Made by a program: the position numbers and the translations under genes. Under the pieces are notes generated by a model, which saw only the letters and a program-made list of their open reading frames with translations, was not told the origin of the DNA and ran no database searches. From contig CP070758.1 in the NCBI GenBank assembly GCA_020348925.1, positions 2,144,030 through 2,183,687 on the forward strand: a stretch of DNA of 39,658 bases, in the 5' to 3' direction. The stretch is from Gemmatimonadota bacterium (lineage in GTDB: Bacteria; JBHIER01; G020348925). This document shows positions 14,512-39,325 of this stretch, one piece after another; position 1 is the stretch's first letter, and every line of letters starts with the position of its first letter.

Positions 14512-16920
14512 TTACGCACGAGTTCGAGGCCCACAGTTTCCGATTCCCAGAATAACGTTCACAACGCTTACGGCATCCACAGCATCCACCTCCCCATCAC
14601 TATTGCAGTCGGCACACCAAAAACGGCTGCCCGTTAAGCTTTCGATCTCCAAAATGTGTCTCACGATAGCGATGACATCCAGAACGTTCATGCTTCTGTC
14701 ACCGTTCACGTCGCCCTTATCCGAAAGTGGTGCCGTGGTGAATTCAAAGACATCCTCGTGCGTAAACGGTTTCAGGGTTGCCAGCACAAATTCATCACCA
14801 AGTTCAGGCGGTGTGTACGAAGGATTGCCGGCAAAAAAAATCATCCACGTCAGGAATGGCCCACTCTGATCCTTCTCTTCGAGGATGTAAACCTCATCAC
14901 GCGGGCTCAGCTCTCCGCTGCCATCCGCCTCGTTGAATACTATATCCACCTGACGATCCTCCGTCCTGTTCCAGACCGTGAAGAACATCGGCACGGCCAG
15001 GGCTCCTAAGAATGTGCTCGAGGTATCAACGATACGATCGTATATCTTCAGAACATAATCAGCCGGATAGGGGTATCCTCGAATAATCTCTGTTCCAAAG
15101 TCCAATTCGGGTAGCGAGATGGTGTGGGTCATGTTCGTCTGCCCGATCTCCCAACCTGTGCCAGCTTGATCGACCACAGCCCGCGGATAATCGAAGATGA
15201 CCAATCGCAATCCATCGAAGGCGGGTCCTTCCGTAACGCCATCCATCTCTACAGCATTGCGCACGACGAACGTGTCCGCATCCAGATCATAAACACTGTA
15301 AGTCTTCTGCTCGGAGAGTGCGTCCTCAAACGTAATCCGATAGACGTGCCCGGTCAATTGTGATGCATCGATGATATTGCCGCCGACCGCACCACTCCCA
15401 TCTCCCCCGATGTGAAGGAAAATGGACTCAGGAAGCCCGCTCCGCTCATTGTGAACGGTGAACGTCTGTGATGTATCCGCGACCTCAACGGATCCATCTG
15501 TGCAGCGGAGCCTCAAGCGATAAAACGGCGAATTCGGCATTCCTCTCGTGTCCCAAAGGTAAGAGCTATCATTCTGTTCATCGGTTACAATTGCTCTCCA
15601 CGTAACTCCGTCATCACTGCTCACGTCGAGTGAAATAAGTAACGGATCACCGTCGGCATCGGCAGCGCTCCATCTGATCTCGTATTCATCGTGCAGCAAC
15701 TCGCCGCCCCGTGGATCATTCAGTTCGATCTCCGGAGGAGCATTTCCCGGATTATTGACAGTGAAGGGACCACTCGACTCCGTCATACCGAAGCGTTCCT
15801 CTCCGAGGACTACGATGCGAAGCTTGTATTGAGTTCCATCGGGCACCGAAAGTGTGTTCCACGGATACGAATTGTTTTGTCTCTGACCGCTCCACAACTC
15901 ATTCCAGCTCGCGCCGGCGTCATCGCTGACAAAGAGTGTCACGAACAGAGAATCCCCTGCATCTTCGAAGGTCCACGAGATATCGATCTGACCGGACACC
16001 TCATCACCAGCTAAGGGTGAGCGCAGACGGACATCCAAGGAAAGCAGGGTCGTCTCAAAGGTGCTGTACACGCCGATGTGATCCGAGGGATAGATTCCCC
16101 CAGAGCTCGGTCTGTTCAAAACCAATCGAGAATCAACCGCTCTGCTTTTGTCGCCATCTCTCAAAAAGACGTAATCGATTCGGGCGTTCGGTGATTCGGC
16201 CGGGACAGTATACCCGGACCCTCCGGGATTGCTCTCGGCCCAACTGTCCAGGTAACGGATACCCTCCGCGTCGACCTCCGTCATGTTCCGAACCGGAGGA
16301 GCATCAGGAACCGCGTTGAAGTCACCACAGACAATATTCGCCGCAGGAACACCGTCAGCACTTTTCTCCTCAACATACTCTTTGATCTGCCGCACCTGGG
16401 CCACGCGAACCTCCTCGTCCTGGGCGAGATGCGAGAGATGGGCATCAAAGAAGTTGACGATCCCTGCCGGGGTCAAGATCCTGCAATACAATGCTTTTCT
16501 CTGAAAGACACCTACTGGTAAATCTCGCACACCTTCTTCAAGAATGATGTGTCGGGTCATGATCCCGAGACCCTCATCGTATCGCCCCCACCCTGTATGG
16601 GTCCGCTCAAAGATATACTCGTATCTGATTCCGGTCCTTCGATAGACCGAATCGGCGATCACCTTGGCGCTGTTGTCACCACCTCCGGTCCCCGGTGTCT
16701 GAAGAACCTCCTGAAGGCCGATGAGATCCGGTTGAAGCTCCTCCAGCTCTTCAACAATCATACTCAATCGTGTCCCCCACTCGATCTCCCAGCCGTGAAG
16801 GTTGAAGGTGAGAACAGTGAGTGAATCTCCGAGACTGCTCTGCACCTGTTGACCTTTACAGGGAATAATCCGGGCGATGAGGAGAATACAGAGTATACCC
16901 CACAACAGTTTACTTTTCAT
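14512..16920 (-). CDS. Exported endonuclease/exonuclease/phosphatase (EEP) protein, MapP-like, with two Ig-like repeats, an unknown domain and a C-terminal dockerin-like module (802 aa)
   Basis: Signal peptide. EEP motifs VLTFNLH, DLIGLQEV, AHLS, CGDFNA, RIDYVF, PSDH. The segment THTGWGRYDEGLGIM resembles maltose-6'-phosphate phosphatase homologs. Duplicated Ig-like units (VSDDAGASW / VSSDDGVTW). Dockerin at 14512-14718. Confidence 0.8.
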   Translation of the reverse strand: MKSKLLWGILCILLIARIIPCKGQQVQSSLGDSLTVLTFNLHGWEIEWGTRLSMIVEELEELQPDLIGLQEVLQTPGTGGGDNSAKVIADSVYRRTGIRYEYIFERTHTGWGRYDEGLGIMTRHIILEEGVRDLPVGVFQRKALYCRILTPAGIVNFFDAHLSHLAQDEEVRVAQVRQIKEYVEEKSADGVPAANIVCGDFNAVPDAPPVRNMTEVDAEGIRYLDSWAESNPGGSGYTVPAESPNARIDYVFLRDGDKSRAVDSRLVLNRPSSGGIYPSDHIGVYSTFETTLLSLDVRLRSPLAGDEVSGQIDISWTFEDAGDSLFVTLFVSDDAGASWNELWSGQRQNNSYPWNTLSVPDGTQYKLRIVVLGEERFGMTESSGPFTVNNPGNAPPEIELNDPRGGELLHDEYEIRWSAADADGDPLLISLDVSSDDGVTWRAIVTDEQNDSSYLWDTRGMPNSPFYRLRLRCTDGSVEVADTSQTFTVHNERSGLPESIFLHIGGDGSGAVGGNIIDASQLTGHVYRITFEDALSEQKTYSVYDLDADTFVVRNAVEMDGVTEGPAFDGLRLVIFDYPRAVVDQAGTGWEIGQTNMTHTISLPELDFGTEIIRGYPYPADYVLKIYDRIVDTSSTFLGALAVPMFFTVWNRTEDRQVDIVFNEADGSGELSPRDEVYILEEKDQSGPFLTWMIFFAGNPSYTPPELGDEFVLATLKPFTHEDVFEFTTAPLSDKGDVNGDRSMNVLDVIAIVRHILEIESLTGSRFWCADCNSDGEVDAVDAVSVVNVILGIGNCGPRTRA

Positions 16921-16961: not shown

Positions 16962-19592
16962 TCACGGACACTCCGGAATAATACCCAGAACAACATTGAC
17001 GATAGAAACGACGTCCGTAACATCCACCCGACCATTACCGTCACAGTCAGCCCGCCAAAGGGCGCTCCCCCCCAACACCTGTATACCTAAAATATGCCTG
17101 ATGACCGCAATCACGTCCAAAACATCGAGGTGCCCATCACCGTTCACGTCACCCTTGTCACCGACGAATGAGAGGTCCTGACCGTACAACACCAACGCAT
17201 CCTGCGTCTCCGGCACGTTCTGTATCATTATCAGGACCACATCCTCATCCGAATGATACCACCAGCCTTCCCCCCCACCCCAGAATTGACCGGCCGAGTC
17301 ATACTCGGAGATCCTCCCTCCATTTTTCAGAAGGGAATCGGGCGGGGTCGGGACACGGTTGACGCGGCAGATGTACACCCGGCCGGGACGTCTTCCGGAG
17401 AAGCCTCCCTGGGCCGGTCCAATATCGATCGTTATCTTTCCTGGGTGCACCTGACACGTATATTGTGTCGTATCCCAATCGCCGGACTCGTAACCGCAGC
17501 TCTTTCCATCGTCCTCGTAGACTATGGCGGAGGAAAATCCGGAGGGATAGATATCCAGGGTCAACGTGTCCAGGGGTATCTGATCCGAATAGTCCATTTC
17601 AGGGCCCATGGGGATGATGGCCCCTGCTTTGATAAAAAGCGGCATGACATCCAAAGGTGACGGAACAGTGTGGTATCCCTGCGTATATATGTCCTTGGTC
17701 CAGTAATCGATCCATTCGCCCCGGGGAAGATAGACCGTTTTTGAGGTTGCACCCTCCTCGGTAACAGGAGCGACCAGAATATCGTCACCCCAGAGATATT
17801 CCCATCCGAGATTGACGACCTCGGGATCGTCGGGATATTCCAGCACGAGAGGCCGGGCCAAAGGTAAGCCCACGGACATATTTCTGTAGGCCATTGTGTA
17901 AATATATGGCAGCAATCTGTACCTCAGTTTGATGTACTTCTTACAAATAGCTTCAACCTCAGGACCATAACCCCAGGGTTCCGTCGTATGGCCGACACCG
18001 TGGGGCCGGGTAATAGGACAGAAGGTGCCGAACTGCATCCAGCGTGCATACAGTTCACCGCTCGGTGTTCCCCAAAATCCGCTTATGTCGGAATGTTGAT
18101 ACCCGACACCCGACAGACTCATGCCCAGCATGATGGGAATCTGGTTCCTCAAACCTTTGAAGGTACAGGAGACATCCCCGGACCAGGGCGCCGTACCGTA
18201 GCGCTGCATCCCGGCATATCCCGACCGTGTCACAATGAACACACGCTCATCCGGACGATAGGCGCGATACCCGTCGTACAGCGTCTTACTCCACAGTAGA
18301 TTCAGAATATTATGGGCCTTGGCTGCGGAGCCAAGGTGGTGAACCATATCCTCCGGATGGGTCTCCGGCTCTCCCAGATCGGTCCACCACCCGGCAACAC
18401 CTTGATCCAAGAACGGCTCGTGCTTCGACCACCACCACTGACGGGCTTCCGGGTTGGTAAAATCGATAAGCCCGGCGGGGCCGGCCCACATATTGACGAT
18501 ATAAGTGGCTCCGGAAGGGTCCATGCCGAAATAACCGTTCGACGAACCCTCACTGAAATTGGGCGTCCAGTCCCTGACATACGGCTCCTCGATGAGGATG
18601 GTCTTAATCCCCACATCCTGAAACTCCCCCAACATCCTTGTTGGATCGGGCCAGTTACTCAAATTCCAGGCAAAACGGCCCATATCTCCGGGATACCCGA
18701 ACCAGTAGAGATCCAGGATGATGGCATCGATGGGGATATCTTTCTCCCACATGGTCGAGATCATAGCCTTGGCCTGATTTTCGTTCTCATACCCGTACTT
18801 TGACTGGAGATATCCCAAGGCCCAGCGGGGCGGCAGCGGTGCTCGGCCCGTCAGCCACGTGTATCTTTCAAGTATCCTTTTCATATCAGGACCGTAAATC
18901 ATGTAGTAGGTCATTTGGCCTCCGTCTGCCCGATAAAACCAGTAATCAGAACTCTCCTCCCCGAAGTCAAAATTGCCGGTATAGGTATTATCGAAATAGA
19001 GGCCGTATCCGGAATTCGTGCAGACAAAGGGAATATTTATGCCCATGGTTGGATGCTCATCATCTCCGGAGCCATGCCGGTTATAGGTGTCAAAGCTCCA
19101 GCCCTTTCGATCCAGGTCGATGGCTCGCATACCGAGGCCGTAAAAATGATCGTCTTGGGTTTGTGAGAAATAGACATACTGATTTGGCCTCTCCCACCCC
19201 AGACCTCCTTCAGGACGCTCTTGCAGAAGTAATTGACCCGACCTATCGGAGAAAGAGAGGCGGAACGGATATTTCTGACAATGGATGTCAAATGTCTGGG
19301 ATAGGATATGAAGACTACTATCCTCGTCCTCAACTGTAAAACTCACGCCAGGCCAGGATGAGTGCATCACAACGAATGAGCTGTCTTCCAGTGGATTCCA
19401 GATAAAAGAGAGCATCACCTTTACGATATCTTCAGTGCAGAACTCGAGGGACACAAAAGCCGGCAAACATTCGAAGACAATCTTGTTGCCATCAACTTCG
19501 TGAGATCCGTAATCTCCCACAAACTCGACAGCCTCGAGCCTCATGTTTAAGGCAACAACAAAAAACGCTGTAAATATTATTTTCGCTCGCAT
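16962..19592 (-). CDS. Exported GH31 alpha-glucosidase / alpha-transglucosylase with a C-terminal dockerin-like module (876 aa)
   Basis: Signal peptide. LTGRAPLPPRWALGYLQSKYGY, ILDLYWF, AGWWTDLGEPE (nucleophile Asp), TRSGYAGMQRY, WSGDV (acid/base), LRYRLLPYIYT. Dockerin at 16962-17156. Confidence 0.92.
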   Translation of the reverse strand: MRAKIIFTAFFVVALNMRLEAVEFVGDYGSHEVDGNKIVFECLPAFVSLEFCTEDIVKVMLSFIWNPLEDSSFVVMHSSWPGVSFTVEDEDSSLHILSQTFDIHCQKYPFRLSFSDRSGQLLLQERPEGGLGWERPNQYVYFSQTQDDHFYGLGMRAIDLDRKGWSFDTYNRHGSGDDEHPTMGINIPFVCTNSGYGLYFDNTYTGNFDFGEESSDYWFYRADGGQMTYYMIYGPDMKRILERYTWLTGRAPLPPRWALGYLQSKYGYENENQAKAMISTMWEKDIPIDAIILDLYWFGYPGDMGRFAWNLSNWPDPTRMLGEFQDVGIKTILIEEPYVRDWTPNFSEGSSNGYFGMDPSGATYIVNMWAGPAGLIDFTNPEARQWWWSKHEPFLDQGVAGWWTDLGEPETHPEDMVHHLGSAAKAHNILNLLWSKTLYDGYRAYRPDERVFIVTRSGYAGMQRYGTAPWSGDVSCTFKGLRNQIPIMLGMSLSGVGYQHSDISGFWGTPSGELYARWMQFGTFCPITRPHGVGHTTEPWGYGPEVEAICKKYIKLRYRLLPYIYTMAYRNMSVGLPLARPLVLEYPDDPEVVNLGWEYLWGDDILVAPVTEEGATSKTVYLPRGEWIDYWTKDIYTQGYHTVPSPLDVMPLFIKAGAIIPMGPEMDYSDQIPLDTLTLDIYPSGFSSAIVYEDDGKSCGYESGDWDTTQYTCQVHPGKITIDIGPAQGGFSGRRPGRVYICRVNRVPTPPDSLLKNGGRISEYDSAGQFWGGGEGWWYHSDEDVVLIMIQNVPETQDALVLYGQDLSFVGDKGDVNGDGHLDVLDVIAVIRHILGIQVLGGSALWRADCDGNGRVDVTDVVSIVNVVLGIIPECP

Positions 19593-19604: not shown

Positions 19605-21665
19605 CTACGGCCAACAAGAACCACGACCCGTTATCACACTCACAACGAGAAGAATATCTCCTACATCAATAGTACTATTGGCATCACAATCCCCACGCCA
19701 GAGAGTGCATGCGTCGGGCTCAATGATCCCAAGCGAAAGCCTGACCGCTGTGACAATATCGAGCACATTGATCACTCCATCATTCGTGACATCGCCCTTC
19801 TGACCACATTCGTTGGCAATACCTCCCTCTCTGTAGACGGCCAATCCACCACCGGCAGTCCCTATCCACATGTTCCCCAGAGAATCCTCAGTCAGTGCCC
19901 AGATCCAGTTACTCGGCAACCCTGAATTACCCGTCATGAACACCTGCCACTCGGAATCGTCGAACCGCACAAGCCCCCTGCTGGTCCCGAACCACTTGTC
20001 CCCGTGAGAATCTATCGTCATGACCCAGACATGATTGTCAGGCAGGATCGAGTTCATCGTATCGTAGACCGTCCAGCCATCACCATCAAACCGCGCCACT
20101 CCGCCATACGTACCAATCCACCGGTTTCCGAGGCTGTCGATGGCGATGTCATTGATCCTGTTATCCGGAAGACCCGAATTGTCGGCCTGATAGACCGTCC
20201 AATGGAGACCATCAATGACAGCCAGCCCATTGAACGTTCCGATCCAAAGATCACCGATCTCATCAAAGGCCAGTGCGAGAACATCATTATCAGGCAGGTC
20301 GGAGTTTTGAGTGTTGAAAACAGTCCAACTCGTCCAGTCAAATCTGGCCAGTCCTCCACCAATGGTTCCCACCCACAGGGCACCGGACCAGTCAACGACC
20401 AGCTCGTAGATTGCGCTCCTCGGCAGACCGGAGTTCTGGGCCGTAAACGAATACCACTGTCCGCCATCGTAGAGACCGAGCCCACCCGGTGTCCCGAACC
20501 ACTTGCTCCCTGAAATGTCGAAGGCGGACACCCACACCAGGTTGTCGAGGGAAACGGTTTTCTTGAGGTCGTAGGCGGTCCATGTGAATCCATCGTATTC
20601 CGTCAGGCCGTTTTCGGTCCCAATCCATCCGTGCCCATGTTCATCGAAAGATACTGTAAAAACGTCCTCATGCGGTAAGCCCGAATTCGCCGCGCTATAC
20701 TCCCTCCACCTTTCACCGTCAAACCGCACAAGTCCCTCGTCCGTGCCAACCCATAGCATCCCGTCGTCATCCTCATCTATTGCCCTCACTTCGTTACTTT
20801 GCAATCCGGAGGTGGCGGTGTTATAGACAGTCCATTGCCGTCCGTCGAATCGAGCGAGCCCACCACCCAGCGTCCCCATCCATTTGTCACCCCGACTGTC
20901 AACAAAAACAGTCCAAATCCAGTTATGAGGCAAGCCGGAGTTGGAGGTGCTGTATACCGTCCACGAAGCACCGTCAAATCGGGCCAAACCGTCTCCCGTC
21001 CCAACCCAGATATGTTCCTCTTCATCGAAGGCTATCGAATAGACATAATCGTTCGGTAAACCGGAATTCAGAGTATTGTAGCTCCTCCAGGCAGATCCAT
21101 CGAAATGCGCCAATCCTCCCTGAGTACCGATCCACACCTCAAAGGAGTCTCTGACGGCCAAGGACCTTATTTCATTATTTGGTAAGCCTGAATTCGAGGT
21201 TGTATACTGGATCCAGTCTTCCCCATCGAATTGGATCAAGCCGTCCTGCGTCCCGATCCACACAGTATTATAAAAGTCAATGGCCAGAGCTCTCACTCTG
21301 TTGTCCGGTAAACCGGAGTTCGATGTGCTGAACGTTGACCAATGCGCACCATCAAATCTGGCCAATCCCCCGGACGTTCCAATCCAGACACTCCCTCTCG
21401 AATCGACGGCGACGGTCCTCACCCCATTTTCCGGAAGACCGGCATTTGCCCGGTTGTAATGAACGACCTCATCGGTTGATGTGCCGAGCTGTGTCAATCC
21501 GCAGCCACCAACCCAGAGATATCCGTTCACCGCAACGAGAGCATTGACATTCGGTGCTGTGTAATTGATCCATTCCGGGTCGTGCGCCACAACCGAAGGT
21601 ACCCAGATGAAAACGAACACTCCATACAATAGAAATTTACAATCCAGTTGTATTGAGGATTTCAT
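19605..21665 (-). CDS. Exported double beta-propeller (Reg_prop / two-component-regulator-propeller repeats) with a C-terminal dockerin-like module (686 aa)
   Basis: Signal peptide. About 14 repeats of ~44 aa with consensus W..Y...NSGLP.N.V..I..D..G..WIGT.GGL.RFDG. No Y_Y_Y, kinase or TM domain. Dockerin at 19605-19799. Confidence 0.85.
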   Translation of the reverse strand: MKSSIQLDCKFLLYGVFVFIWVPSVVAHDPEWINYTAPNVNALVAVNGYLWVGGCGLTQLGTSTDEVVHYNRANAGLPENGVRTVAVDSRGSVWIGTSGGLARFDGAHWSTFSTSNSGLPDNRVRALAIDFYNTVWIGTQDGLIQFDGEDWIQYTTSNSGLPNNEIRSLAVRDSFEVWIGTQGGLAHFDGSAWRSYNTLNSGLPNDYVYSIAFDEEEHIWVGTGDGLARFDGASWTVYSTSNSGLPHNWIWTVFVDSRGDKWMGTLGGGLARFDGRQWTVYNTATSGLQSNEVRAIDEDDDGMLWVGTDEGLVRFDGERWREYSAANSGLPHEDVFTVSFDEHGHGWIGTENGLTEYDGFTWTAYDLKKTVSLDNLVWVSAFDISGSKWFGTPGGLGLYDGGQWYSFTAQNSGLPRSAIYELVVDWSGALWVGTIGGGLARFDWTSWTVFNTQNSDLPDNDVLALAFDEIGDLWIGTFNGLAVIDGLHWTVYQADNSGLPDNRINDIAIDSLGNRWIGTYGGVARFDGDGWTVYDTMNSILPDNHVWVMTIDSHGDKWFGTSRGLVRFDDSEWQVFMTGNSGLPSNWIWALTEDSLGNMWIGTAGGGLAVYREGGIANECGQKGDVTNDGVINVLDIVTAVRLSLGIIEPDACTLWRGDCDANSTIDVGDILLVVSVITGRGSCWP

Positions 21666-24600
21666 TCACCATCCCTACGATGTCCAAAACGTTCACGGCC
21701 CCGTCGTCGTTGAAATCGGCGGCCCACAATTCATATTCTGTCGGGAGAGGGGGAAGTATCAGAATAATATTGACTGCCATGACAACATCCACAACATCTA
21801 TGGATCCGTCTCCATTCACGTCCCCTTTCAGTCCGAGATCAGTGTTGAGTGAGTCCCCTAAAACGAGAATCTGCGCCTGATACGGCTCAAGTTGGAAGTG
21901 GATCGTGTCAAGATTGGCCCCTCTGTACGGATACTGATGGTCGGCCAACACATCAGTCAGATAATACTGTTTCCCCGGATCGACACTCCAATCCTCAAGG
22001 GGCAGGATCACATCGGCCGTCCGTACCTCATCGGCAAAATTGAGATTGACGACAACGGTCTCATCCCCTTCACGCCGGAAGAAGGAGTAGACGAAATTGC
22101 TGTTCCCGTTACTGAGCCGATCGATGGTCTGGTTGCGCATGGATGGGTACGTTTTCCGAACGAAGATGAGCTTCTGATAGTAGGGTCGCAGCTCGTTGGG
22201 ATCGCTCCAGTTAATGAGACCGCGCTGGCTGCTTTCCCCCACTTCCTGCCCGGCGTAGATGAGGGGTATCCCGGGGATCGTCAGATTGAGAGCAGTCAGT
22301 ATCTTCGCCTGGGGGACAGTATACTCGGACATGAGGCGCTGCTCATCGTGGTTCTCCAGAAAACGCAGGGGGTATGCATTGTCCGGGAACCCGTACACGA
22401 TCCCGTTGAACTCGTTGATGATCTTCTCATGCAGCCATCCCACGTCTCCACCGGAAAGAATGTTCCCGAATCCGTCCCAGAAGAGGGGCCAGTCGTAGGC
22501 CGAATCGAAACGCCGGTCGAAGAGTGTAAAATCAGTGGCACCGGCTTCGGCCAGGCACAGGATATCCGGCCTGGTCGTCTTCAACGCCTGCCGCCATTCA
22601 AGCCAGTAATCGGGATACCGGTCCTGGATGCCCCAGGCCACGTCGCACCTGAAGCCGTCAATCCCGAGGGAATCCGTGTAAAATTTGGCCATGTTGATGA
22701 AGTAATCCCGGGCATCCTCATCGCTCTGATTCAAATTGGGCAGGCTTGTCCAGTCATAGTAATAGGTGTAGAGACCGTTGGGGCTCAGCGTCCCTCCCAG
22801 CTCCTCCCTTCGCTCGTAGAAATCGTAATAAAAGGAATGCTGGCGGAACCTGGCCATATCCTGGAAGAAGGCATGATCGATGGAGGAATGGTTGACCACG
22901 TGATCGATGATGACGCGCAGGCCCAGGTCATGCGCCGTTTCGATAAATGCCACAAAATCATCCATGGTGCCGTAATCGGCCTCGATGGCCAGGTAATCAT
23001 TGACCGCATAGCCGTGATCCGACGGTCCCTCGTTGATGGGCATGAGCCAGATGGCCGTTGCGCCCAAATCGGCGACATCCCCAAGCCGTGCCGTCGCCCC
23101 GGCGAAATCCCTGCTGGAGCTGAAGGACCGGATGTAGATCTCGTAGAGTATGGCATCCTTGACCCACTGGGGGCTGTCGTTCATGCTGCCCCCCCAGGCA
23201 CTGTCGGACGTCACGGAAACAAAGGTCCGCCCGTAAGACTCCTCACTGTCAATATCACTGGCGATGAGATCGAAATAGTATTCCCCCTCAACCTCGGGCT
23301 TGGGGAAAGAGGGCGTGGCCGACGTCGGATCGTCCAACACCACCAGCGACGGATTGTCCGAATCGACCAGCCACTGGTGAAACACTTTGGGACCGTTGGG
23401 ATCATTACTCAGACTGGCATCAAGGCTGATCGTACTGTTGCTGAATATGGCCGGCGAAAATACGATGTTCGGCCGGGTATAAAATTTTCTGAAGAAGATT
23501 AGATTCGCGGAGTAAATGGAATCGCCATCGCTGACGACCAGGGCGCGGAAAACGTTCTCCCCTGTTGTCAGAAAAGCCGCGTAGGCGAATTCATTCTCTA
23601 TCACAGGAACGATAACGGGTGCTTCGTTGTGAAAAAGCGTTACCTCCACCACCGAACCACCCTCGACACTGCCGACGATCTCGACGTTTTTCTTCAGCGT
23701 GGTTCCCCCTCTGGTCAGAAAGGACACGACGATATCCGATGCCTTCAGACTGCTGTCGATATCGCTGGGGCTGATGCCGACATATCCGCGTCCCTCATAA
23801 TCAAGGGCCGCCTGGCGACTGCTGGTGAAGTTGTTGAACAAGCGAGTCTGGAGCTCGGGTGAATCACAGAACATGGCGTCAAATACATCCGCCTCACCCT
23901 CCTCAGCCACGCCACCCATATTCTCATCAACCTCCGTGACCATCCCCCCTGTTCCCGTCACATACGAATAGATGCAACAGTACCACTTGTCCGTGAACGT
24001 CCCCAGCAGACCCGTCAAATCCGACAAAGAAAGCGAGAAGGCAAAGGTATCGGACGCAACCGCACCCGGGGGCATAGAAACCCGAAGATCCCCGATGAGT
24101 GGGTCTCTGGTCGTGTAGAGTATATTATGCATCTCCCCATCGCAGTGGGGAGACTCAGGAGATACAATGGGAACATAGATACCGACACCGGTCCACTCAA
24201 GGTGACTCAATTCCGTACTGATAATATCCCCGACCAGGCCGGCATCGATGGAATTGGTCAGAATAAAGGAAAGGGCCGTATATTCCGTAATATCTGCCAG
24301 ACCGATCCGAAAGTGCAATGAATCTTCAGCCCCCGTCAGCCTGATGTGCATACTGAGAAGATCAGCCGAACCATCCGGGACGCCTTCGGGATAGGTGTAG
24401 GTCCCGGTACCGGCATCGTCACCGTAGCTGTCAAGATAATGATATCCGGACTCCGACGGATAGACGCCGAAGACACTCGTTTTCCGGGGCGCGGCCCGAC
24501 CCTCATTATCCGAAACGTCAAAGGTGAGAAGATGATCCCCCGGGGAGAGATCCGAAACGGAACCGGACAGCACTGACCAGAAAGGATCGTACGAGAAACC

Positions 24601-30923: not shown

Positions 30924-30952
30924 ATTTCGAATTCCTGAAGATTTCGGAAGTC
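30924..30952. repeat. REP-like imperfect palindrome, copy 1 (malE-malF spacer)
   Basis: ATTTCGAATTCC-tga-AGATTTCGGAAGTC; shares AGATTTCGGAA with copy 2. Confidence 0.5.
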
Positions 30953-30961
30953 CCGTTATTC

Positions 30962-32194
30962 CTACTCCCTGTTCTCCTCGATCAATTTTAAGGCCAGGCG
31001 TTGCATACTCTCCGCCGCCTGCTCCGGTGTCTTCTCCCCAGTAAATATGGCCTGATAGCTCGGTCTCATGGCATCCCAGATCCAGCGCAGCTCGGTCACG
31101 ACCGGCATTGTCTTTCCGACCATCAGCTGGTAAACAGACTGCTGAAGGAGCTCATTATCCTTCACAATGGAACTCCGAAAGGCCTCTTTTCTCGAAGGAA
31201 TGGAAGCCGTCGCCCGTGTAAATATCAACTCAACCTCGGGAGAAGTGAGGAATTGCATCAATGCAACCGCCACCCTCAACCGCTCACCCCTGACGTTGAC
31301 GTTCAGTGAATAGCCCAGGGGAGAAATCATCGGCGAGGGCCACAGGTCGGTCTCATCTATTTTCGGAATCCGGGTGATGCCGATATCGATATTGTTCTCA
31401 ATGTACGTTCCCCACGACCAGGGTCCGTTGATAATCATGGCTGAATACCCATCCTTAAACAGAGCGTTGGCTATCTCGTAATCGCATTCACGGGGAATGA
31501 TCCGATGGGTATTGGCCAGATCGTAAATCAGTTGCGCAGCGTCTACTACGGCGTCAGTGTCCAGGGTAGGTCGACTCTCTGCGTCCATGATCCATCCGCC
31601 GAAACCTCCGATAAAGGGTATGGCGAAAAAAGGCTCCGTATAGTTCCAGGCCAAGGCGTAGCGATCCGGTTTGCCGTCCCCGTTTGTATCCTTGGTCAAC
31701 GCAACGCCCATCTCAATGAGCTCATTCATGGTTTCAGGAGGTTCGGGGACCATATCCTTGTTATAGACAAGACAGAGATGATTCCCCACGCGGTCGGCGA
31801 TCTGATAGAGATGATCCTGAAACCAGGTGTTGGCCTCTATCGGATCGGTTAAGAAGCTGTCAAGGTAAGCTTGGTTCACATGGGGCTCGATAGGCTGGAT
31901 GACCTGCAATTCCACGAGCGGGCCAATATTGTCGCTGGCACCCCACAAGAGTGCAGGGCCGCTTCCTCCCAGGGCGGAGATGATAAAGTTCGTGCGAGCC
32001 GTCTCAGGAGCGTAAAACAGCTCCCCAAACTCCCACTCGGGATGTTGTTTCCCGAATTCCTTGAGCTGCTCCCGAAGAATCTCTCGCTCAATCGGCCGCA
32101 AGGAGTGCCAGACCATGATGCGTTTTTCGTTGTGGGAACAGCTTAAAATACTGAGAGCAAAGAATACGAATACCACAAGGTACTTGACCTTCAA
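30962..32194 (-). CDS. Maltodextrin-binding lipoprotein of the ABC transporter (MalE/CymE-like); start uncertain (TTG at 32194 proposed, ORF open to 32281)
   Basis: Lipobox ILSC followed by IMVWHS. LVYNKDMV.EPP.T..EL, IPFIGGFGG, AMIINGPWSW, MPVVTELRWIW match family-1 maltodextrin SBPs. Adjacent to malF and malG. Confidence 0.85.
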   Translation of the reverse strand: MKVKYLVVFVFFALSILSCSHNEKRIMVWHSLRPIEREILREQLKEFGKQHPEWEFGELFYAPETARTNFIISALGGSGPALLWGASDNIGPLVELQVIQPIEPHVNQAYLDSFLTDPIEANTWFQDHLYQIADRVGNHLCLVYNKDMVPEPPETMNELIEMGVALTKDTNGDGKPDRYALAWNYTEPFFAIPFIGGFGGWIMDAESRPTLDTDAVVDAAQLIYDLANTHRIIPRECDYEIANALFKDGYSAMIINGPWSWGTYIENNIDIGITRIPKIDETDLWPSPMISPLGYSLNVNVRGERLRVAVALMQFLTSPEVELIFTRATASIPSRKEAFRSSIVKDNELLQQSVYQLMVGKTMPVVTELRWIWDAMRPSYQAIFTGEKTPEQAAESMQRLALKLIEENRE

Positions 32195-32281
32195 GATCTT
32201 CGAATCCCACAATAGGTTTTGCCTCAGTGGAGCACCGTGTGTTGTTTTCGTTTCAAATCTTGAAACCATAGTCTTAACCAT

Positions 32282-32311
32282 ACTTCCGAAGTCTTAGAGA
32301 TTTCGGAATTC
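32282..32311. repeat. REP-like imperfect palindrome, copy 2 (symporter-malE spacer)
   Basis: ACTTCCGAAGTCT-tag-AGATTTCGGAATT. Confidence 0.55.
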
Positions 32312-32318
32312 TTCTCAC

Positions 32319-34154
32319 TCACACTATTTTCTCATCCCCCACGGCTTCAACCTTCACCTCCGATGAGAGATGCCTGAACCAGGTAAAATAGAGACCGGTT
32401 GAAAGGGCGATTAGTATGACAAAAAGAACGCTGACGGTATCCCATCGTTTCATGATAACCATCATGAAGGTCAGAAAGAGGATGACCTGCCACGGCACGG
32501 CAAAGAAAGTCGATACGATATCACGCTTGTTCTCTTTGTTGACTTCCTCCATAACGTTTTGCGGGATCTGCCTCCGGATATGCCCCCAGAATCCGAAAGG
32601 CCGGGTCCTTTTGTAAAACTCAAAAAGGACGGCATCGTTCGTCGGTTTGGTGGCAAAGGTTCCCACCAGCATGGCAACAAAGGAGATGCCGCTGGCAAAG
32701 GAGAACGCCACATACTCCGGGACGTTCGGGAACAGGAGCCGCTGCAGGATGGCGGCCATCATGCCGGCTCCGGTGCCGATGGCAAAACCATACCCGTTCA
32801 ACCGCCACCAGTACCAGCGCACCAGTGTGGGAATAATCATGCCCGCTCCGATGCTCATGGTGATCCAGCCCCATATTTCATTGATGTTGGTGATGGCCAA
32901 TGTAAAGAGCAAACCAAGAATGACCATAATAATGCTGGCCATGCGACTGTGCAGCATCAATTGCTTCTCCGTGGCCTTCGGATTGATGTACGCCTGATAA
33001 ATATCTTTGACCCAGTAGGAGGCTCCGGCATTGACCGTCGAATCGAAGGTGGACATGGCGGCGGCCATCAATCCCGCGATGAGAAATCCTTTGATGCCAA
33101 TAGGGACCAGCTCGTTGACGACCACGGGGAGGACGGTTTCAGGATCGTTGATCACCCCTCGGCTGGCTCCCATGGCAACCCCCATCAGGGCGATGGCGGC
33201 GATGAAGGGCCAGCGAAAGGAGAGCAGAAAGGTCCAGAAGAGGGACAGCAGTCCCGCCTCCCGGTCGCTCCGCGCCGCGAAATAGCGCTGGATCATGTAG
33301 CCGCTGGTTCCGCCACTGCCTTCAATCGTCACCTTGATGAGATAGAAGAGGATGGCTATTCCGAAGAGGTTGTATATCGAATAGGAGGACCCTGCCGGCA
33401 TGTTCAATTTCCACTGGGGAAGAACGCTGGTCCAGGCCTCCTTCGTGGTTTGAATGGCTTGAAAGGTCCCGTCCCTCATGGGAACGGAAATGGAAAACAC
33501 ATCGGGGATGTTGAACTTGGTGAGGGCCATAATACAGATGAAGAGAATGGTCCCGAAAATGAGAACCCCCTGAAAGACATCGGTCCAGACCACACCGTAC
33601 AGCCCGCTGGCCACGGTGTAGATCATGGCCAGAACAATCATGAGGGTGGCTGCCCAGAATTGGCCGGACAAACCCATGAACGACGGGATGCCGAGAAACT
33701 CGGCCACGAACTTTCCGGACCCGATGGCAAAGTAGGTGATCATGGCAATGGTCACCACCATGATGGAGACGGCCGCCAGCAGGCGGGCGACATCACCCTC
33801 CCTGTCTTTGCCGAAGCGAAAGCGCATCCACTCGGCCATCGTCATCACCTGCGCCCGCCGGTTCCATTTTCCCATGAAGATCATGAGAAAGGCCATGATG
33901 AGGGTCACACCGCCGCGGATTTCGATGAAAAATCCCATGGCCCCCAGGGCGAAGATCCAGGCCGTATTGATCATGGTGCCGCTCACATCGAGGTTTGAAG
34001 CCATCCCGGAGGCACCCAACACCCACCAGGGAAGTTTCCGATTGCCCAGGAAATAGGAGTCTATCCCAGCCGATGCCCTTCGCTGCATGAGCAGACCGAT
34101 GGTCACAATTCCGGTGAGATAGAGAACAACAATGACATAATCAATCCAGCCCAT
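32319..34154 (-). CDS. Sodium:solute symporter (SSS/SLC5 family), probably sugar uptake (611 aa)
   Basis: AAGGAGG SD; many TM helices; YFLGNRKLPWW, YTVASGLYGVVWTD.FQ, QRYFAA, AAAMSTFDSTVN. Confidence 0.92.
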   Translation of the reverse strand: MGWIDYVIVVLYLTGIVTIGLLMQRRASAGIDSYFLGNRKLPWWVLGASGMASNLDVSGTMINTAWIFALGAMGFFIEIRGGVTLIMAFLMIFMGKWNRRAQVMTMAEWMRFRFGKDREGDVARLLAAVSIMVVTIAMITYFAIGSGKFVAEFLGIPSFMGLSGQFWAATLMIVLAMIYTVASGLYGVVWTDVFQGVLIFGTILFICIMALTKFNIPDVFSISVPMRDGTFQAIQTTKEAWTSVLPQWKLNMPAGSSYSIYNLFGIAILFYLIKVTIEGSGGTSGYMIQRYFAARSDREAGLLSLFWTFLLSFRWPFIAAIALMGVAMGASRGVINDPETVLPVVVNELVPIGIKGFLIAGLMAAAMSTFDSTVNAGASYWVKDIYQAYINPKATEKQLMLHSRMASIIMVILGLLFTLAITNINEIWGWITMSIGAGMIIPTLVRWYWWRLNGYGFAIGTGAGMMAAILQRLLFPNVPEYVAFSFASGISFVAMLVGTFATKPTNDAVLFEFYKRTRPFGFWGHIRRQIPQNVMEEVNKENKRDIVSTFFAVPWQVILFLTFMMVIMKRWDTVSVLFVILIALSTGLYFTWFRHLSSEVKVEAVGDEKIV

Positions 34155-34281: not shown

Positions 34282-36654
34282 TTATTTAAACTCTCTCTTT
34301 CTCCAGTCCCTTCTCAATTTCGTCTCAAGAAAATCCTTTATCATCAGGCATTGTACGTTTTCAGGCACCTCGGTCTCGGCCAGCATACTCGCTCCTTCGG
34401 GCTCAAGTACCATTTCAGGGAAAGACAAGGTCAATATACCATCAGGCTCCAAAATGTACTCCGTGTCATAAAACACAACAGGAAGCGCTTCCGTCAGATC
34501 GGAGGCAGCCACAAGCGCTTTTCCATCATCGAAGTCATACCTCATCTGTATACGACCCAACTTTGTCAGGATGACAAACTGAAGTGTCCGGTAATACTTT
34601 AAAACAGCCGATGGTTGAAGTCGGAGACCATACCTGTCAAAGAACGGAGAGACACCGAGGAAATCCTGATAGAAATTTCGCACATATTCCGCCAGACTCC
34701 AGGCCTGGGTAAAGGTGCCGGTCACTTCCGGCTCAGTGTGATCGGGCTTCGGGGCCGCATCAACCAGCTCAGCAATTGTCCCCACAGCCCCTCTATTCAG
34801 TATCTGTTCGGTGAGTGCGTCGAAGAGAACATGGGGTACGAACGTCCGCCCACGACGACAGAATGCGGTGACAACCGGCCCGCTGTTCCACGTCCAGATG
34901 ATGCCGTTGTGATAGGACGCATCGTAGTGGTAGTTGGGATGGTGGTGATAGGGATGATAATTGACCTCTTCCTTCCACAACGATCCAACGCCGAAAGGAT
35001 AGACCAGTCGCTCAGCGAACAGATCAAGATCGACACGACCGAGACCGCCGTTCAGACCGGCATACAGGCTCCCTTTCGGAAACGGGTCTGTAAAGGGAAC
35101 CGTCAGGCAGAACACCTGATTGGGCCGGTACTGTAAATCCGGCGTTCCGTCCGGATCGAGGTGGTCGTAAATTCCCGAACGGTCGGTTGTAATAAAATGG
35201 GTTGAAAAGTTCTGGCGAATCCTCTCTGCGACATTGAGCCATCTCTCCATCACATCTGTTCTCTCCGCTGCAAGTTCCCCCAGCTTCACCCCGGCAATCA
35301 GCTGCGTATACCACAGGGCCTGGATGTCGCAGGCCCGATCCCCGCGTGAGGACCAGGGGACGGTTCCTTCGATCTTGGCATCCATCCACGTATCAGCACC
35401 ATCGTGCACCAGAAATCCGTTCTCATCAAGCCGATACCGGATCGTCCCTTCAATGGACCGTTTGACCACCGGAAAGATCTGTGAGGCGAAGGCCGTATCT
35501 CCTGAGTAGAGAACATACTCGTACGCCCCCCTCACAAACCACGGCGTTCCATCGGCCGTGTTGTAAATCACCTCGTCGGGACGAACCCGATTCGGAATCC
35601 GTCCGTCCAGGAAATCGGTATCATCGGTCATTTGGTAGGTGCCGAAATCCAGGAGAATCTCTCGTGCCCGTTCAAACTGACCTGTAACGAGCAAGGCGCC
35701 CGGTAGCGAGATAAAGGTATCACGACCCCAGTAATCGTTGAACCAGGGCAACCCGGCGAAGATGCCTCTTTTATCCTGATTCATGACCAGGGCGTCCAGG
35801 GAAATCTTGGCCCAGGAGAGGGCCGTGTTGAGATCCTCATTATTTGTATGAATGTAAGTCTCACGCAGAAGGTTTTCGAGGCGCGCGCTCTTTGTATCGA
35901 CGCCGATATTCGGCGATTGAAGAGTTTCTTGTATCAAACGGGCAACCGTATTCTTATCATGATCGGCCGCGAAAATAATATGAGCTTTCCCGTGAGATTG
36001 CACACTGAGACTTCCCAGGGTCTGAAGGTTATGAGGGACATACTCCGGCACACCAGGTTCGAATACACCCGACGCACCTGTGGATATGCCCAGCCATCGC
36101 GGCCTGCCGGGCTCATCCGGCAGAGTGAGCCAATCATCTTGTGTGACAAAGAGGACACCCTGTTCATCATCCCACTCGGCATTGCATTGGGCTTCACCCC
36201 TCGGAAAAACCGGCGTCAGTTTGAGCCCGCTGCCCCCTTCTACCTCGACGAGCAAAACCGTCCTATCATCAAGCAATGTCACCCTCTCTGTAATCTCACC
36301 ATAATCCCTCACCAACTGGTGGAAACAGACCGATGCATTGGCTTCGGATCGAGGGAGGAGACGATCATCAACGGATAGATAGTAATCATCAAGGAGTTTC
36401 ACCCTGTAATCGGTCAGACCTTGAAAAAAGTGATCGTTATAACCGTTCGTATTGCCGTAATAAAAAGCGGCTTGTTTGTTGGTGTACGAGAACTCCCGGT
36501 TGTTGCCAGGGTGAACCTCTATCTTCATGGACTCCGTCAATTGACGGCCCTCAGGGATTTCAAAAAGCACGGCTTTGGTCGCTCCTCTCCATGAAGTAAG
36601 AATTAGGATACAAAAACTCAAACGTAGTATTGAGGTAGAAAATCCTGCTCTCAC
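34282..36654 (-). CDS. Amylo-alpha-1,6-glucosidase (glycogen debranching enzyme GDE_C / GH133-like), apparently exported (790 aa from the GTG at 36654)
   Basis: GGGAG SD before the GTG; hydrophobic N-terminal segment. AGLPWFNDYWGRDTFISLPG, GRIPNR, YNTADGTPWF, TWMDAK, RPNQ, YHNGIIWTW, QAWSLAE. Confidence 0.88.
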   Translation of the reverse strand: MRAGFSTSILRLSFCILILTSWRGATKAVLFEIPEGRQLTESMKIEVHPGNNREFSYTNKQAAFYYGNTNGYNDHFFQGLTDYRVKLLDDYYLSVDDRLLPRSEANASVCFHQLVRDYGEITERVTLLDDRTVLLVEVEGGSGLKLTPVFPRGEAQCNAEWDDEQGVLFVTQDDWLTLPDEPGRPRWLGISTGASGVFEPGVPEYVPHNLQTLGSLSVQSHGKAHIIFAADHDKNTVARLIQETLQSPNIGVDTKSARLENLLRETYIHTNNEDLNTALSWAKISLDALVMNQDKRGIFAGLPWFNDYWGRDTFISLPGALLVTGQFERAREILLDFGTYQMTDDTDFLDGRIPNRVRPDEVIYNTADGTPWFVRGAYEYVLYSGDTAFASQIFPVVKRSIEGTIRYRLDENGFLVHDGADTWMDAKIEGTVPWSSRGDRACDIQALWYTQLIAGVKLGELAAERTDVMERWLNVAERIRQNFSTHFITTDRSGIYDHLDPDGTPDLQYRPNQVFCLTVPFTDPFPKGSLYAGLNGGLGRVDLDLFAERLVYPFGVGSLWKEEVNYHPYHHHPNYHYDASYHNGIIWTWNSGPVVTAFCRRGRTFVPHVLFDALTEQILNRGAVGTIAELVDAAPKPDHTEPEVTGTFTQAWSLAEYVRNFYQDFLGVSPFFDRYGLRLQPSAVLKYYRTLQFVILTKLGRIQMRYDFDDGKALVAASDLTEALPVVFYDTEYILEPDGILTLSFPEMVLEPEGASMLAETEVPENVQCLMIKDFLETKLRRDWRKREFK

Positions 36655-36717
36655 ATTAATGCTCCCACCCTGCCAGCCTCTCGCCAAGGCTTCTGCATGT
36701 CATTCCGGCTTCAGTGA

Positions 36718-36985: not shown

Positions 36986-39325
36986 CTACTTCATCAGCAC
37001 CATCTTTCTGGTCATAACAGAGTTGTCAGTTTGGAGCCGATAGAAGTAGATGCCACTGGCCATGTCACTTCCATCAAAGGTCACACTGTGAAAACCGGCT
37101 TCCATCTGGCTGTCAACCAGAACCTTCACCTCCTGACCCAGGACGTTGAAGACGCTCAACTTCACTTTGCCTGAGAGAGGCAAGGCGTACGCAATCGACG
37201 TCTCCGGGTTGAAGGGATTGGGATAGTTCTGGGCCAGGCTGTACTCCCCCGGCATCCCTATTTCGGCCTTGACGAGCGCCATGAACCTGGAGAAATCCTC
37301 CGGAGCCATATAGTCAGCCAGGGATTGCAGGAATTTCATAGCTTCCGCAGACACCTCAAGCTTCGCCGCGGCAGGCGGGCACGTGCCAATACCCAGGACA
37401 ACGTTGACGATGCCCAGAGCATCCAACACATCCCAGGCCCCGTCTTCGTTGCAGTCCGCAGTCCATATACCGGGAAGAGTCGTCGGGTCAGGCTCCGTGG
37501 CCAGGATAATATTCACGACATGAAGCACATCCAGGATGTCGACAGCGTGATCGAGATTGGCATCGCCCTTCAGCCAGGGCCGCTTCGCGTTGAAATCCCA
37601 GGTCCAGTACTGGGGCGGAGCGATATCTCCAAACTGGGCGTCAACTTGAGATTCCGCCTGACTGTCGTTGATATTCTCGATGTGGTTGTTCCCGTAACCA
37701 CCCTCGTTATCACCACCGTTGACGCCGAACTTGAACTCCTGACCGACCACGTCGGAACTGTCCACAAAATATGACTCGATACGGGTGTAGATACTGTCGC
37801 CGGCTGTCTCGTCCCCGTTGGTCCCGTCATCCACCATCCGCTTGTAGTCCAGGGTCATGAGATGGGCGCCCCAATCGGAGAACCCCTCGCCGTTGGACCA
37901 TCCAAACTCCGTCGCCGGCCCGTTCATGGCCACACCATAGGCAATAACATCATCCGGATTGCTGATATCCAGCGATCCCTGGATGTCGTAGAGGGTACTG
38001 CCCACGGCCACCTGGTAGATGGCCGGCCTGACGTCGCAGGTGAAGGTCACCCTCACATCCATGGCAATCACCGACGTGTTACGGAACAGGGGCATGCGGT
38101 GAACGTCATCCTCGCTGTCCACGATATCCTGAATGACGATGTTATTCCCCTCGACAGGATCATACACCCGCCGCTCCGCCTCACCGGCTGTCAAGCCAGT
38201 ATAGTAGAAGTTGTAGTATATCTCGCGGTAGTCGATATCATTCACGTTCTTGTAGTACTGGTAGTCCAGGAACTCGCCGATCGTCGTCATGATGGTGTCC
38301 GTGGCCGCGTAGATGTTGGTGAAGCCCTGACGCGTCATCGTCGCCGCATAAACCTCAGACGCCGTCCCGTAGTACCCACAGTTGACCACCAGAGGCTGGC
38401 CGTGGGCAAAACCATTGTTGGCAATGGCGTTGGACATGTCCGCCTCAAACCGGACGATAACCTCGTCCTCATGGATGGCGGTCACCGGACGGAGATTGTC
38501 GAACCAGAACCAGTGCAGGGTCGTGTCGGCACCGGTCAAGTCAATACGAAGCTGCTGCTGACTGGGATTGTAGACCATGTCGCCCCAGTCCTCCTCACAG
38601 GGGGCCCCAGCATTGTGCACCACCACCTTGAATTCGATCCCTGCACCAGCGTACGTATCAGGCACATGGATCGCGCCGCTGTAAAGGAATCGACCCGAAT
38701 ACTGCTGGCTGCCGCCGTTGACATGATCCGGCTCCGGACTGAGCCAGTGGGTGCAGCCCCAGCTGAGCTCGCCGGTCTGGCCCCAGTCGACGTAGTTGGA
38801 GCCCCGGATACCCACCTGATGAGTCGGCGAGAGATCCTCCCAACCCTGCATGTTCACCCGAACCCAGACCGCAAAGGTGCCTTCCACATCCTCCCAGGGC
38901 GTCGCCTCCGGATCACCAGAAAAAGTACCGTACACGAACTGCAGGGGAAGAACCGTGGCATCATCGGGAACGGTCAGTGTCCTGTTCGGATCGCCTTCCC
39001 AGCCCTGGTGTTCCCACTCCGCTCCCCCATAGACAGTGTCGTGGGAGGCGTTGGTGAAAAATTTGTACTGGATATTACTTCCTGCGGCGAAGTCCCACGA
39101 ACCTTCCCAGTAATCCCCGCCGACATTGTGCAGAAAAACCTCGGACGTCCCGTCCCACTCCAAGCCCCCGGCCACACCATCATCACCACGCATCTGAACG
39201 ACGGAGTTCGGTCCCATGGTATCAGGCACCGTGGCCGTATTCCCCACAAACGTAATCTGAACCGCACTGGCGGCCGTAAAAGCGGCCAACACGGTGAAAA
39301 CTGCAAACAAAGAAACCTTTCTCAT
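36986..39325 (-). CDS. Secreted, apparently non-catalytic protein: about 4 CBM20-like beta-sandwich modules + dockerin-like module + helical linker + T9SS/FlgD-type C-terminal sorting domain (779 aa)
   Basis: GAGGGG SD and a signal peptide ending ASA. Repeated V.ITF/V.VRF...G....W...Y/FKF pattern, and a DDGTNGDETAGDSIYT motif. Dockerin at ~37373-37570. Tail YSLAQNYPNPFNPETSI...VFNVLGQEV...ASGIYFYRL...RKMVLMK. Confidence 0.8.
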   Translation of the reverse strand: MRKVSLFAVFTVLAAFTAASAVQITFVGNTATVPDTMGPNSVVQMRGDDGVAGGLEWDGTSEVFLHNVGGDYWEGSWDFAAGSNIQYKFFTNASHDTVYGGAEWEHQGWEGDPNRTLTVPDDATVLPLQFVYGTFSGDPEATPWEDVEGTFAVWVRVNMQGWEDLSPTHQVGIRGSNYVDWGQTGELSWGCTHWLSPEPDHVNGGSQQYSGRFLYSGAIHVPDTYAGAGIEFKVVVHNAGAPCEEDWGDMVYNPSQQQLRIDLTGADTTLHWFWFDNLRPVTAIHEDEVIVRFEADMSNAIANNGFAHGQPLVVNCGYYGTASEVYAATMTRQGFTNIYAATDTIMTTIGEFLDYQYYKNVNDIDYREIYYNFYYTGLTAGEAERRVYDPVEGNNIVIQDIVDSEDDVHRMPLFRNTSVIAMDVRVTFTCDVRPAIYQVAVGSTLYDIQGSLDISNPDDVIAYGVAMNGPATEFGWSNGEGFSDWGAHLMTLDYKRMVDDGTNGDETAGDSIYTRIESYFVDSSDVVGQEFKFGVNGGDNEGGYGNNHIENINDSQAESQVDAQFGDIAPPQYWTWDFNAKRPWLKGDANLDHAVDILDVLHVVNIILATEPDPTTLPGIWTADCNEDGAWDVLDALGIVNVVLGIGTCPPAAAKLEVSAEAMKFLQSLADYMAPEDFSRFMALVKAEIGMPGEYSLAQNYPNPFNPETSIAYALPLSGKVKLSVFNVLGQEVKVLVDSQMEAGFHSVTFDGSDMASGIYFYRLQTDNSVMTRKMVLMK

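Follow-up and report, generated by a model that had tools for sequence, protein, structure and literature searches.

What do dockerins do on the exported proteins of an alpha-glucan locus in a diderm bacterium? Here, we address this question for a stretch of 39,658 nucleotides (hereafter, the window) from a Gemmatimonadota bacterium (assembly GCA_020348925.1, contig CP070758.1, positions 2,144,030 to 2,183,687), in which an initial annotation had recognised five dockerin-bearing exported proteins and proposed that they form a starch-specific complex at the cell surface or, failing that, use the dockerin as a generic sorting or anchoring tag. Our analysis covered the window and the remainder of the genome (G000), a single 5.04-Mb scaffold that is 96.3% complete and contains 205 gaps of 100 N, some of which cut genes outside the window. 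A starch-specific amylosome is not supported, because only about 4 of the 303 dockerin proteins of this genome are alpha-glucan related and the dockerins of the window do not form a subtype; the generic tag is the idea that gained support. On balance, the five proteins are probably clients of a genome-wide cohesin-dockerin system that would serve the cell envelope as plug and socket.

The five genes all lie on the minus strand, each product begins with a Sec-type signal, and the duplicated Ca-loop/helix module is terminal or internal in each. This module is indeed a dockerin: 4 of the 5 proteins exceed the cut-off of Pfam Dockerin_1 (PF00404; 22.9 bits) in a Pfam scan, the remaining one is recovered by a profile trained on the genome, and a profile of 90 dockerins from the genome matches solved type I dockerins (2ccl, 1ohz, 5nrk). 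The largest protein is a secreted alpha-amylase-type enzyme of glycoside hydrolase family 13 (GH13) with multiple carbohydrate-binding modules (CBMs; 21637..25566, likely start 25491), in which Pfam recognises alpha-amylase, AMPK1_CBM, Ig_N_CWD1, PKD-like and Dockerin_1 domains and which retains the nucleophile and third-Asp motifs of GH13; it ends in a dockerin (21658..21828; residues 1247-1303; 36.9 bits), with no type IX secretion system (T9SS) tail. Next to it are a secreted beta-propeller (19605..21665) with Reg_prop repeats, PorZ-like below the cut-off, whose divergent C-terminal dockerin (19632..19799) scores 18.1 bits with Pfam, below the cut-off, and 52.9 bits with the genome-trained profile, and a secreted GH31 alpha-glucosidase or oligosaccharide 4-alpha-glucosyltransferase (16962..19592), which is nearest to Agd31B-type enzymes, matches the structures 6jr6 and 4b9y, and carries a C-terminal dockerin at 16995..17156 (36.7 bits). 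The fourth protein, a secreted phosphatase or nuclease assigned by Pfam to the EEP family (14512..16971), has its C-terminal dockerin (14551..14718; 39.1 bits) on an immunoglobulin-like (Ig)-rich chassis that is shared with two unrelated dockerin enzymes elsewhere in the genome, a metallophosphoesterase-dockerin and an esterase-dockerin, the latter with a T9SS C-terminal sorting domain (CTD).

The fifth gene (36986..39325), as initially annotated, places a dockerin (37406..37570; Dockerin_1, 25.9 bits) ahead of a CTD (36998..37225; Por_Secre_tail, PF18962, 40.2 bits), a type A tail by TIGR04183 (45.9 bits). Its product is a putative secreted starch-binding protein with CBM20/CBM48-like modules: the CBM_20 match of the payload is borderline (23.1 bits in the Pfam scan, 25.8 bits in a family search) and its feature neighbours in a protein atlas are CBM20/CBM48 proteins at 0.97, and PDB sequence searches with this payload, as with the N-terminal half of the amylase, returned no match. 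An orthologue with the same tail (70% identity) is encoded by the sister genome G002, in which two near-identical tandem copies of the starch-binding dockerin-CTD gene stand on one contig (G002:C45; L093:2705-7578), either a recent duplication or an assembly repeat, followed by a different GH31 (35% identical) that has no dockerin. Dockerin and CTD are separated by a conserved two-helix spacer (approximate bounds 37253..37351; two helices in an AlphaFold2 model), the length of which is 56-61 amino acids in 65 of the 72 dockerin-then-CTD tails of the genome. The possibility that this hairpin masks the dockerin found no support, AlphaFold2 giving no fixed packing. As a separate observation, 47 aligned dockerin-CTD tails share two invariant cysteines, one inside the dockerin and one just after it.

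How far does the dockerin extend beyond the window? Of 527 candidates for Dockerin_1, 150 were scored and 148 of these matched; Cohesin (PF00963) gave 81 matches, 73 of them over the cut-off. Iterated local profiles run over 13,222 open reading frames (ORFs) recovered 303 proteins with a dockerin, 105 with a cohesin and 256 with a CTD, with 0 matches of the dockerin and cohesin profiles to reversed ORFs. A dockerin is combined with a CTD in 112 proteins and occurs without one in 191, a few of which are genes cut by assembly gaps; 79 cohesin proteins have a CTD, and 69 proteins combine dockerin and cohesin. Altogether, a dockerin or cohesin is found on 337 of approximately 3,869 predicted genes, and these make up 18% of coding residues; G002 yields at least 121 dockerin and at least 69 cohesin matches. 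Of 164 dockerin-only modules, 133 have kept both Ca loops intact, and at the recognition positions the consensus of one dockerin repeat is near-identical to that of the other, a symmetry that in the cellulosome literature marks the dual binding mode; the conserved helix positions are presumably those that face the cohesin in solved complexes. The payloads are diverse: single linkage sorts them into 118 clusters, of which one is large. A sample of 151 of the 303, drawn from the 40 densest further regions and cut to at most 620 residues, includes 26 peptidases, which represent seven families, as well as 24 FG-GAP propellers and 2 glycoside hydrolases (GH99 and GH57), along with 51 payloads without a match at E 1e-14 and a mixed remainder. 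Some of the dockerin-bearing peptidases are encoded in tandem, with six M28 genes in a row at one site and three C25 genes in a row at another (L117, that is, G000:C1:2581686-2600586, and L121).

Starch is a minor concern of this clientele. The roughly 4 alpha-glucan-related proteins among the 303 are the GH13, a GH57-like protein, the GH31 and the starch-binding protein; family searches place a dockerin on 1 of 6 GH13 proteins and 1 of 5 GH57 matches, and another secreted amylase of the genome has a CTD only. The GH57-like protein, with its C-terminal dockerin, is encoded outside the starch locus (L137:4711-6570; G000:C1:2547205-2550090), a pairing also reported for Ca. Stygibacter; GH15 was found in neither genome. 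Nor are the dockerins of the window a starch-specific subtype, a possibility that we rejected: their mean pairwise identity is 0.436 versus 0.434 +/- 0.061 in 5,000 random sets of five drawn from 291 near-complete modules, half of which reach the window value. Only one pair within the window set, EEP and GH31, is mutually close (60%, ranks 1 and 5 among 290). Compared with the amylosome of Ruminococcus bromii, a dockerin-bearing GH13 with a signal peptide is present, and starch enzymes and binders are neither the main carbohydrate-active clients nor a large share of all clients; candidates for a cell-anchored scaffoldin are the T9SS-tailed multi-cohesin proteins and two lipoprotein cohesins, which are not of the sortase type and in G000 have no link to this locus. 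As initially annotated, no cohesin lies within the window, the nearest cohesin genes being located approximately 30-43 kb before and 17 kb after it. Two observations had been named beforehand as jointly telling against a starch-specific complex, namely, dockerins spread over unrelated proteins and no cohesin in the genome; the former was made and the latter was not, cohesins being abundant elsewhere. A similar window was not found in the other genomes compared.

The sockets themselves are genuine cohesins. By sequence, the cohesin profile matches solved cellulosomal and archaeal cohesins, and a modelled structure has the type I cohesin fold. Non-catalytic scaffolds are exemplified by a protein with a signal, six cohesins with Ig spacers and a CTD (G000:C1:4337232-4340957); in addition, there are cohesin-dockerin adaptors, 5 minimal proteins composed of a signal, one or more cohesins and a CTD, with minimal cohesin-CTD genes at 2626821, 2627805 and 2977763, and 2 cohesins that stand alone behind a lipobox-type signal, at G000:C1:3165985-3166671 and, with the lipobox recognised by eye, at 2246564-2247163. 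The latter of these two genes adjoins a ComEC-type competence gene. No starch-binding module was reported on the cohesin proteins scanned, and CBM48-type and CBM20 matches fall on no cohesin protein.

The cell that houses this system is diderm, as had been supposed, given a BamA match of 550 bits to TIGR03303 (cut-off 297) and the presence of TonB-dependent receptors. It also encodes the SprA translocon (725 bits; cut-off 200), the PorU sortase (737 bits; cut-off 420) beside PorV, and approximately 12 genes that pass the cut-off for the PorV family, including one located just upstream of the starch locus, so that with the 256 CTD proteins as cargo the translocon, sortase and PorV of a T9SS are all in place. 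As to the organism, the 20 relatives returned include 1 from the same family (G002) and 19 that share the domain only; the named GH31 homologues come from KSB1, Fidelibacterota, Bacteroidota, Ignavibacteriae and Calditrichaceae, from which we infer a placement similar to the Fibrobacterota-Chlorobiota-Bacteroidota group. The genome further contains tRNA-Sec and tmRNA (G000:C1:405376-405474 and 3579028-3579382), among 41 tRNA/tmRNA genes in total.

The new point from this window concerns what stands at the end of these proteins in their relatives. Among the 16 full-length amylase homologues at E 1e-150, from the 8,000 best candidates scored, all 6 at 67-99% identity, one of them approximately the query itself and one from G002, have a dockerin without a CTD, and all 10 at 35-41% identity have a CTD without a dockerin; the dockerin of the amylase and the rest of the enzyme are conserved to a like degree (71-78% versus 67-81%). 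For GH31, the best 120 of 3,126 matches comprise 92 with a CTD only, 2 with both dockerin and CTD, 1 with a dockerin only, which is the window protein itself, and 25 with neither. The 2 proteins with both modules are the closest homologues (74% and 71%), and the GH31 of the window stops just after the motif where these run on into the T9SS tail. The propeller orthologue in G002 (57% identical) is likewise dockerin-only. Best-match pairs at 50% identity or above between G000 and 82 of the 670 contigs of G002, chosen for dockerin or cohesin matches, include 14 that are dockerin-only in both genomes, 7 with dockerin and CTD in both, 3 dockerin-only versus dockerin and CTD, 1 dockerin and CTD versus CTD, and 2 in which the G000 partner is cut by a gap; the tail-less state is therefore mostly stable and sometimes switches. 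An assembly artefact was rejected as the source of the tail-less window genes, which abut the next gene, with the amylase and the propeller being tail-less in other genomes as well. Identity ranks, rather than a rooted tree, suggest that the swap ran from CTD through dockerin plus CTD to dockerin only.

These observations fit into the following scheme. After Sec export, the dockerin would bind Ca2+ and dock on a cohesin, and the cohesin-CTD scaffolds would, by analogy with Bacteroidota, leave the cell through the T9SS and be held on its surface by an anchor. Upon expression of the alpha-glucan locus, which is headed by a LacI regulator, the amylase, the GH31 and the starch-binding protein would join this surface coat, and the products would be taken up by way of the TonB-dependent receptor encoded upstream, the GH13 and GH57 enzymes, which are periplasmic or lipid-anchored, and the ABC transporter. 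Given that the dockerin stands where the homologues have a T9SS tail, the four dockerin-only proteins would most likely travel to the surface on a cohesin-CTD carrier, which is the most fragile step of the scheme, and such co-export appears to be the simplest way out for tail-less proteins. In its explicit form, which we put forward only tentatively, small signal-cohesin-CTD shuttles and the scaffolds would bind dockerin enzymes in the periplasm, pass through SprA with them and hold them at the surface, a piggyback form of type IX export. Under the same reading, and with similar reserve, the starch locus might record a tail swap in progress.

Several findings weigh against a cohesin-based envelope system that displays these proteins. 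Dockerin domains exceed cohesin domains (327 versus 177), and the 69 of 105 cohesin proteins that bear their own dockerin may have the cohesin filled in cis. The mean pairwise identity of the cohesins is only 20%, so that a hidden specificity is possible. The 25 tail-less proteins among the best 120 GH31 homologues, some of which are partial, imply that the family is not confined to proteins with a signal for export across the outer membrane. GldN, the one component of GldK/L/M/N that was searched for, was not found in the 2 genomes nor in the 14 controls, so that the T9SS motor is presumptive. The sister locus counts on both sides: in favour, G002 has a signal-cohesin-Ig-CTD gene (L232:4612-5742, G002:C123; profile match 98%) directly behind the propeller-dockerin orthologue; against, this gene possesses a ribosome-binding site but no in-frame ATG, GTG or TTG start, and is followed by decayed GH31 and EEP remnants; this cohesin gene may itself be decaying.

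The alternative that survives best is that the dockerin-only proteins lost the T9SS tail and stay in the periplasm, held at a membrane by the standalone lipoprotein cohesins, with the dockerin acting as an indirect lipid anchor. We consider this main rival rather unlikely, and the evidence on it is divided. Two lipobox-type standalone cohesins exist, and dockerin and lipobox exclude each other genome-wide: by a crude heuristic, which missed two lipoproteins of the window, a lipobox occurs in 0 of 132 signal-bearing dockerin-only proteins versus 82 of 762 signal-bearing proteins free of these modules (Fisher p 1.8e-6), and T9SS-tailed proteins are likewise seldom lipoproteins (3 of 107). The sole secretin of the genome follows pilM, pilN and pilO, and type II secretion, the other genes of which were not searched for, was rejected as an export route because that secretin sits in a pilus operon; the tail-less GH31 homologues also speak for retention in the periplasm. 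Conversely, the several starch-binding modules of the amylase, with T9SS cargo as 10 of 10 distant full-length homologues, fit an insoluble substrate outside the cell. Furthermore, 79 of 105 cohesin proteins are T9SS-tailed and only 2 are lipoproteins, and two sockets seem few for 191 clients, many of which are peptidases and large propellers.

Alternatively, the dockerin could act without any cohesin, either as a Ca2+-binding tail for folding and stability or as a sorting signal read by a PorV-family protein. The multiplicity of PorV-family genes, with one next to the locus, and the replacement of the CTD by the dockerin at the same position are compatible with this role, as are the 112 proteins with both modules, which are therefore not simple alternatives. 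It is improbable, however, considering that in both genomes the expansion of dockerins is paralleled by one of cohesins and that the helix positions which face the cohesin in solved complexes are conserved and symmetric. Structure modelling points the same way: for a naturally occurring dockerin-linker-cohesin tail of another protein of the genome, AlphaFold2 gave a predicted template modelling score (pTM) of 0.87, with a low-confidence linker, and for the dockerin-hairpin-CTD tail of the window a pTM of 0.53, in jobs that differ in alignment depth (17 versus 47 rows) and domain number and in which the interface is not visible. The tandem tail thus models as one rigid unit, a hint that suggests a fixed dockerin-cohesin contact, although its high pTM may reflect likeness to solved complexes. 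When the GH13 dockerin was modelled together with Ca and cohesin number six of the six-cohesin scaffold, the predicted complex scored 0.13 versus a mark of 0.32 and is counted neither way.

A dedicated amylosome, in which the five proteins share a starch-specific surface scaffold, is largely refuted and very improbable: the run of four dockerin genes within an alpha-glucan operon, where neighbours overlap or almost overlap, the cohesin-CTD gene of the sister locus and the proximity of the EEP and GH31 dockerins favour it, and starch enzymes make up only 4 of 26 (PMC4611034) or 5 of 27 (PMC12663171) dockerin proteins in R. bromii, so that a mixed clientele alone does not exclude it; against it stand, besides the census, the lack of a starch-active domain in two of the five proteins (EEP and the propeller), of a cohesin in the G000 locus and of a dockerin on most GH13 proteins, and the reduction of the dockerin GH31 and EEP to remnants in the sister genome.

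The window holds most of a minus-strand alpha-glucan operon, in the order starch-binding protein, debranching enzyme, symporter, ABC transporter, GH57, GH13, the four dockerin genes, GH13 lipoprotein, CBM48-GH63-like enzyme, glycogen synthase and 4-alpha-glucanotransferase. The debranching enzyme, an amylo-alpha-1,6-glucosidase (GDE_C; 34282..36687), has no dockerin; the uptake genes (29117..34154) encode two ABC permeases, a MalE-like binding protein and a sodium:solute symporter, the solute-binding protein at 30962 having a lipobox by eye that the heuristic missed and no dockerin. The initial annotation held that dockerin and lipid anchor are mutually exclusive here, and the lipoproteins of the window do lack dockerins: a GH57 (27008..29017) and a GH13 (12621..14534), both assigned by Pfam and the lipobox heuristic, and a probable second GH13 lipoprotein (25584..27011), with a lipobox by eye that the heuristic missed. 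The two are not an either/or choice, however, given that a CBM48-type protein with a GH63/MGH1-like hydrolase domain (10700..12712) has a Sec-type signal and neither dockerin nor lipobox. A cytoplasmic GH57 4-alpha-glucanotransferase and the glycogen synthase (7083..10660) end the locus; all of these genes are on the minus strand. Converging on the operon from the plus strand are genes for TPR, DUF362 (with a twin-arginine-like leader) and DUF6599 proteins in a row (3767-7007), and further out lies the C-terminal part of a TonB-dependent receptor (3-1499, plus strand) that contains a 100-base N gap.

Upstream of the window, the locus goes on with genes for another CBM-like protein that has a CTD, a member of the PorV family, a protein of 1,305 aa that matches the CTD weakly, a TonB-dependent receptor and the LacI regulator. 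This receptor (G000:C1:2189837-2193019) is split by a single in-frame TAA, with both halves aligning in one frame to a paralogue, which reflects either a sequencing error or recent inactivation; its N-terminal ORF, the part that was scanned, scores 61 against a SusC cut-off of 368. SusD_RagB has no match in either of the 2 genomes, with a positive Bacteroides thetaiotaomicron control. Two loci, L092:1429-9620, which includes this receptor (L092:6438-9620), and L155:5775-14403, share the order TonB-dependent receptor, large CTD-like protein or proteins without a Pfam match, and PorV-family gene, possibly a SusD-free capture module. The starch locus resembles Sus of Bacteroidota in combining a TonB-dependent receptor, a LacI regulator, a lipoprotein GH13, a periplasmic-type glucosidase and starch-binding proteins, and differs from it in that there is no SusD, the receptor being followed by the large CTD-like protein and the PorV-family gene. 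It is also akin to the T9SS-secreted amylases of Bacteroidota, given that homologues of the amylase and the GH31 are T9SS cargo; unlike in either, dockerins here replace or precede the CTD.

The closest parallel is Ca. Stygibacter, a diderm member of the Cloacimonadota, for which a cellulosome-like complex, anchored through a CTD and directed at starch, chitin and protein, has been proposed in silico (PMC8542988). Shared features are a dockerin-bearing secreted GH57 amylase-like enzyme, S8 and C25 peptidases, and a multi-cohesin scaffoldin with a T9SS-type CTD. That system has few dockerin proteins and one 3,755-aa scaffoldin with CBM2/CBM3, in contrast to approximately 303 dockerin and 105 cohesin proteins, Ig-spaced scaffolds, minimal cohesin-CTD proteins and lipoprotein cohesins in the present one; both are known from sequence alone. 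Section 7 of PMC8542988 does not discuss how CTD-less dockerin enzymes exit the periplasm. The R. bromii amylosome (PMC4611034, PMC12663171) similarly includes a dockerin-bearing GH13 with starch-binding modules, a dockerin-bearing starch-binding protein, cohesin-dockerin proteins and peptidases that share the anchoring cohesins. That bacterium, however, is a monoderm starch specialist with sortase-anchored complexes and experimentally shown binding, whereas the present organism is a diderm with T9SS-tailed scaffolds; its amylolytic dockerin proteins, 4-5 of 26-27, dominate the proteome, compared with approximately 1% alpha-glucan-related clients here, and the amylase here carries no cohesin. 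The 'planctosome' of freshwater Planctomycetes (PMC6461901) is another non-cellulosomal Gram-negative cohesin-dockerin system with a proposed role in peptidase display, and peptidases are the largest enzyme class in our genome too; it differs in its proposed Lamin-tail anchor, lack of a T9SS tail, few components and purely in silico basis.

Further afield, PMC11557425 names one non-Bacillota genome, a member of the Planctomycetes-Verrucomicrobia-Chlamydiae superphylum, among marginal cases, and a preprint on Omnitrophota (bioRxiv 10.1101/2023.11.21.568195) describes dockerin-type giant proteins. The text of PMC4454575 (Latescibacteria) does not contain the terms for cellulosome parts, no joint paper on dockerin, cohesin and KSB1 was found in the literature searched, and its titles and abstract openings hold no mention of cohesin-mediated T9SS co-export. 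Gram-negative cohesin-dockerin complexes thus appear, in the literature found, as proposals from sequence. The scale of the system stands out, as does the exchange of CTD for dockerin, which makes the export question testable.

The starch locus offers a clean handle on the role of this system, having an assayable amylase whose relatives end in either a T9SS tail or a dockerin. If co-export on cohesin-CTD carriers is true, it would constitute a T9SS route for cargo without a signal of its own and might lend itself to displaying proteins in modular fashion on the surface of Bacteroidota hosts. For the organism itself, piggyback export would mean that approximately 190 enzymes share a reusable adaptor for both export and anchoring.

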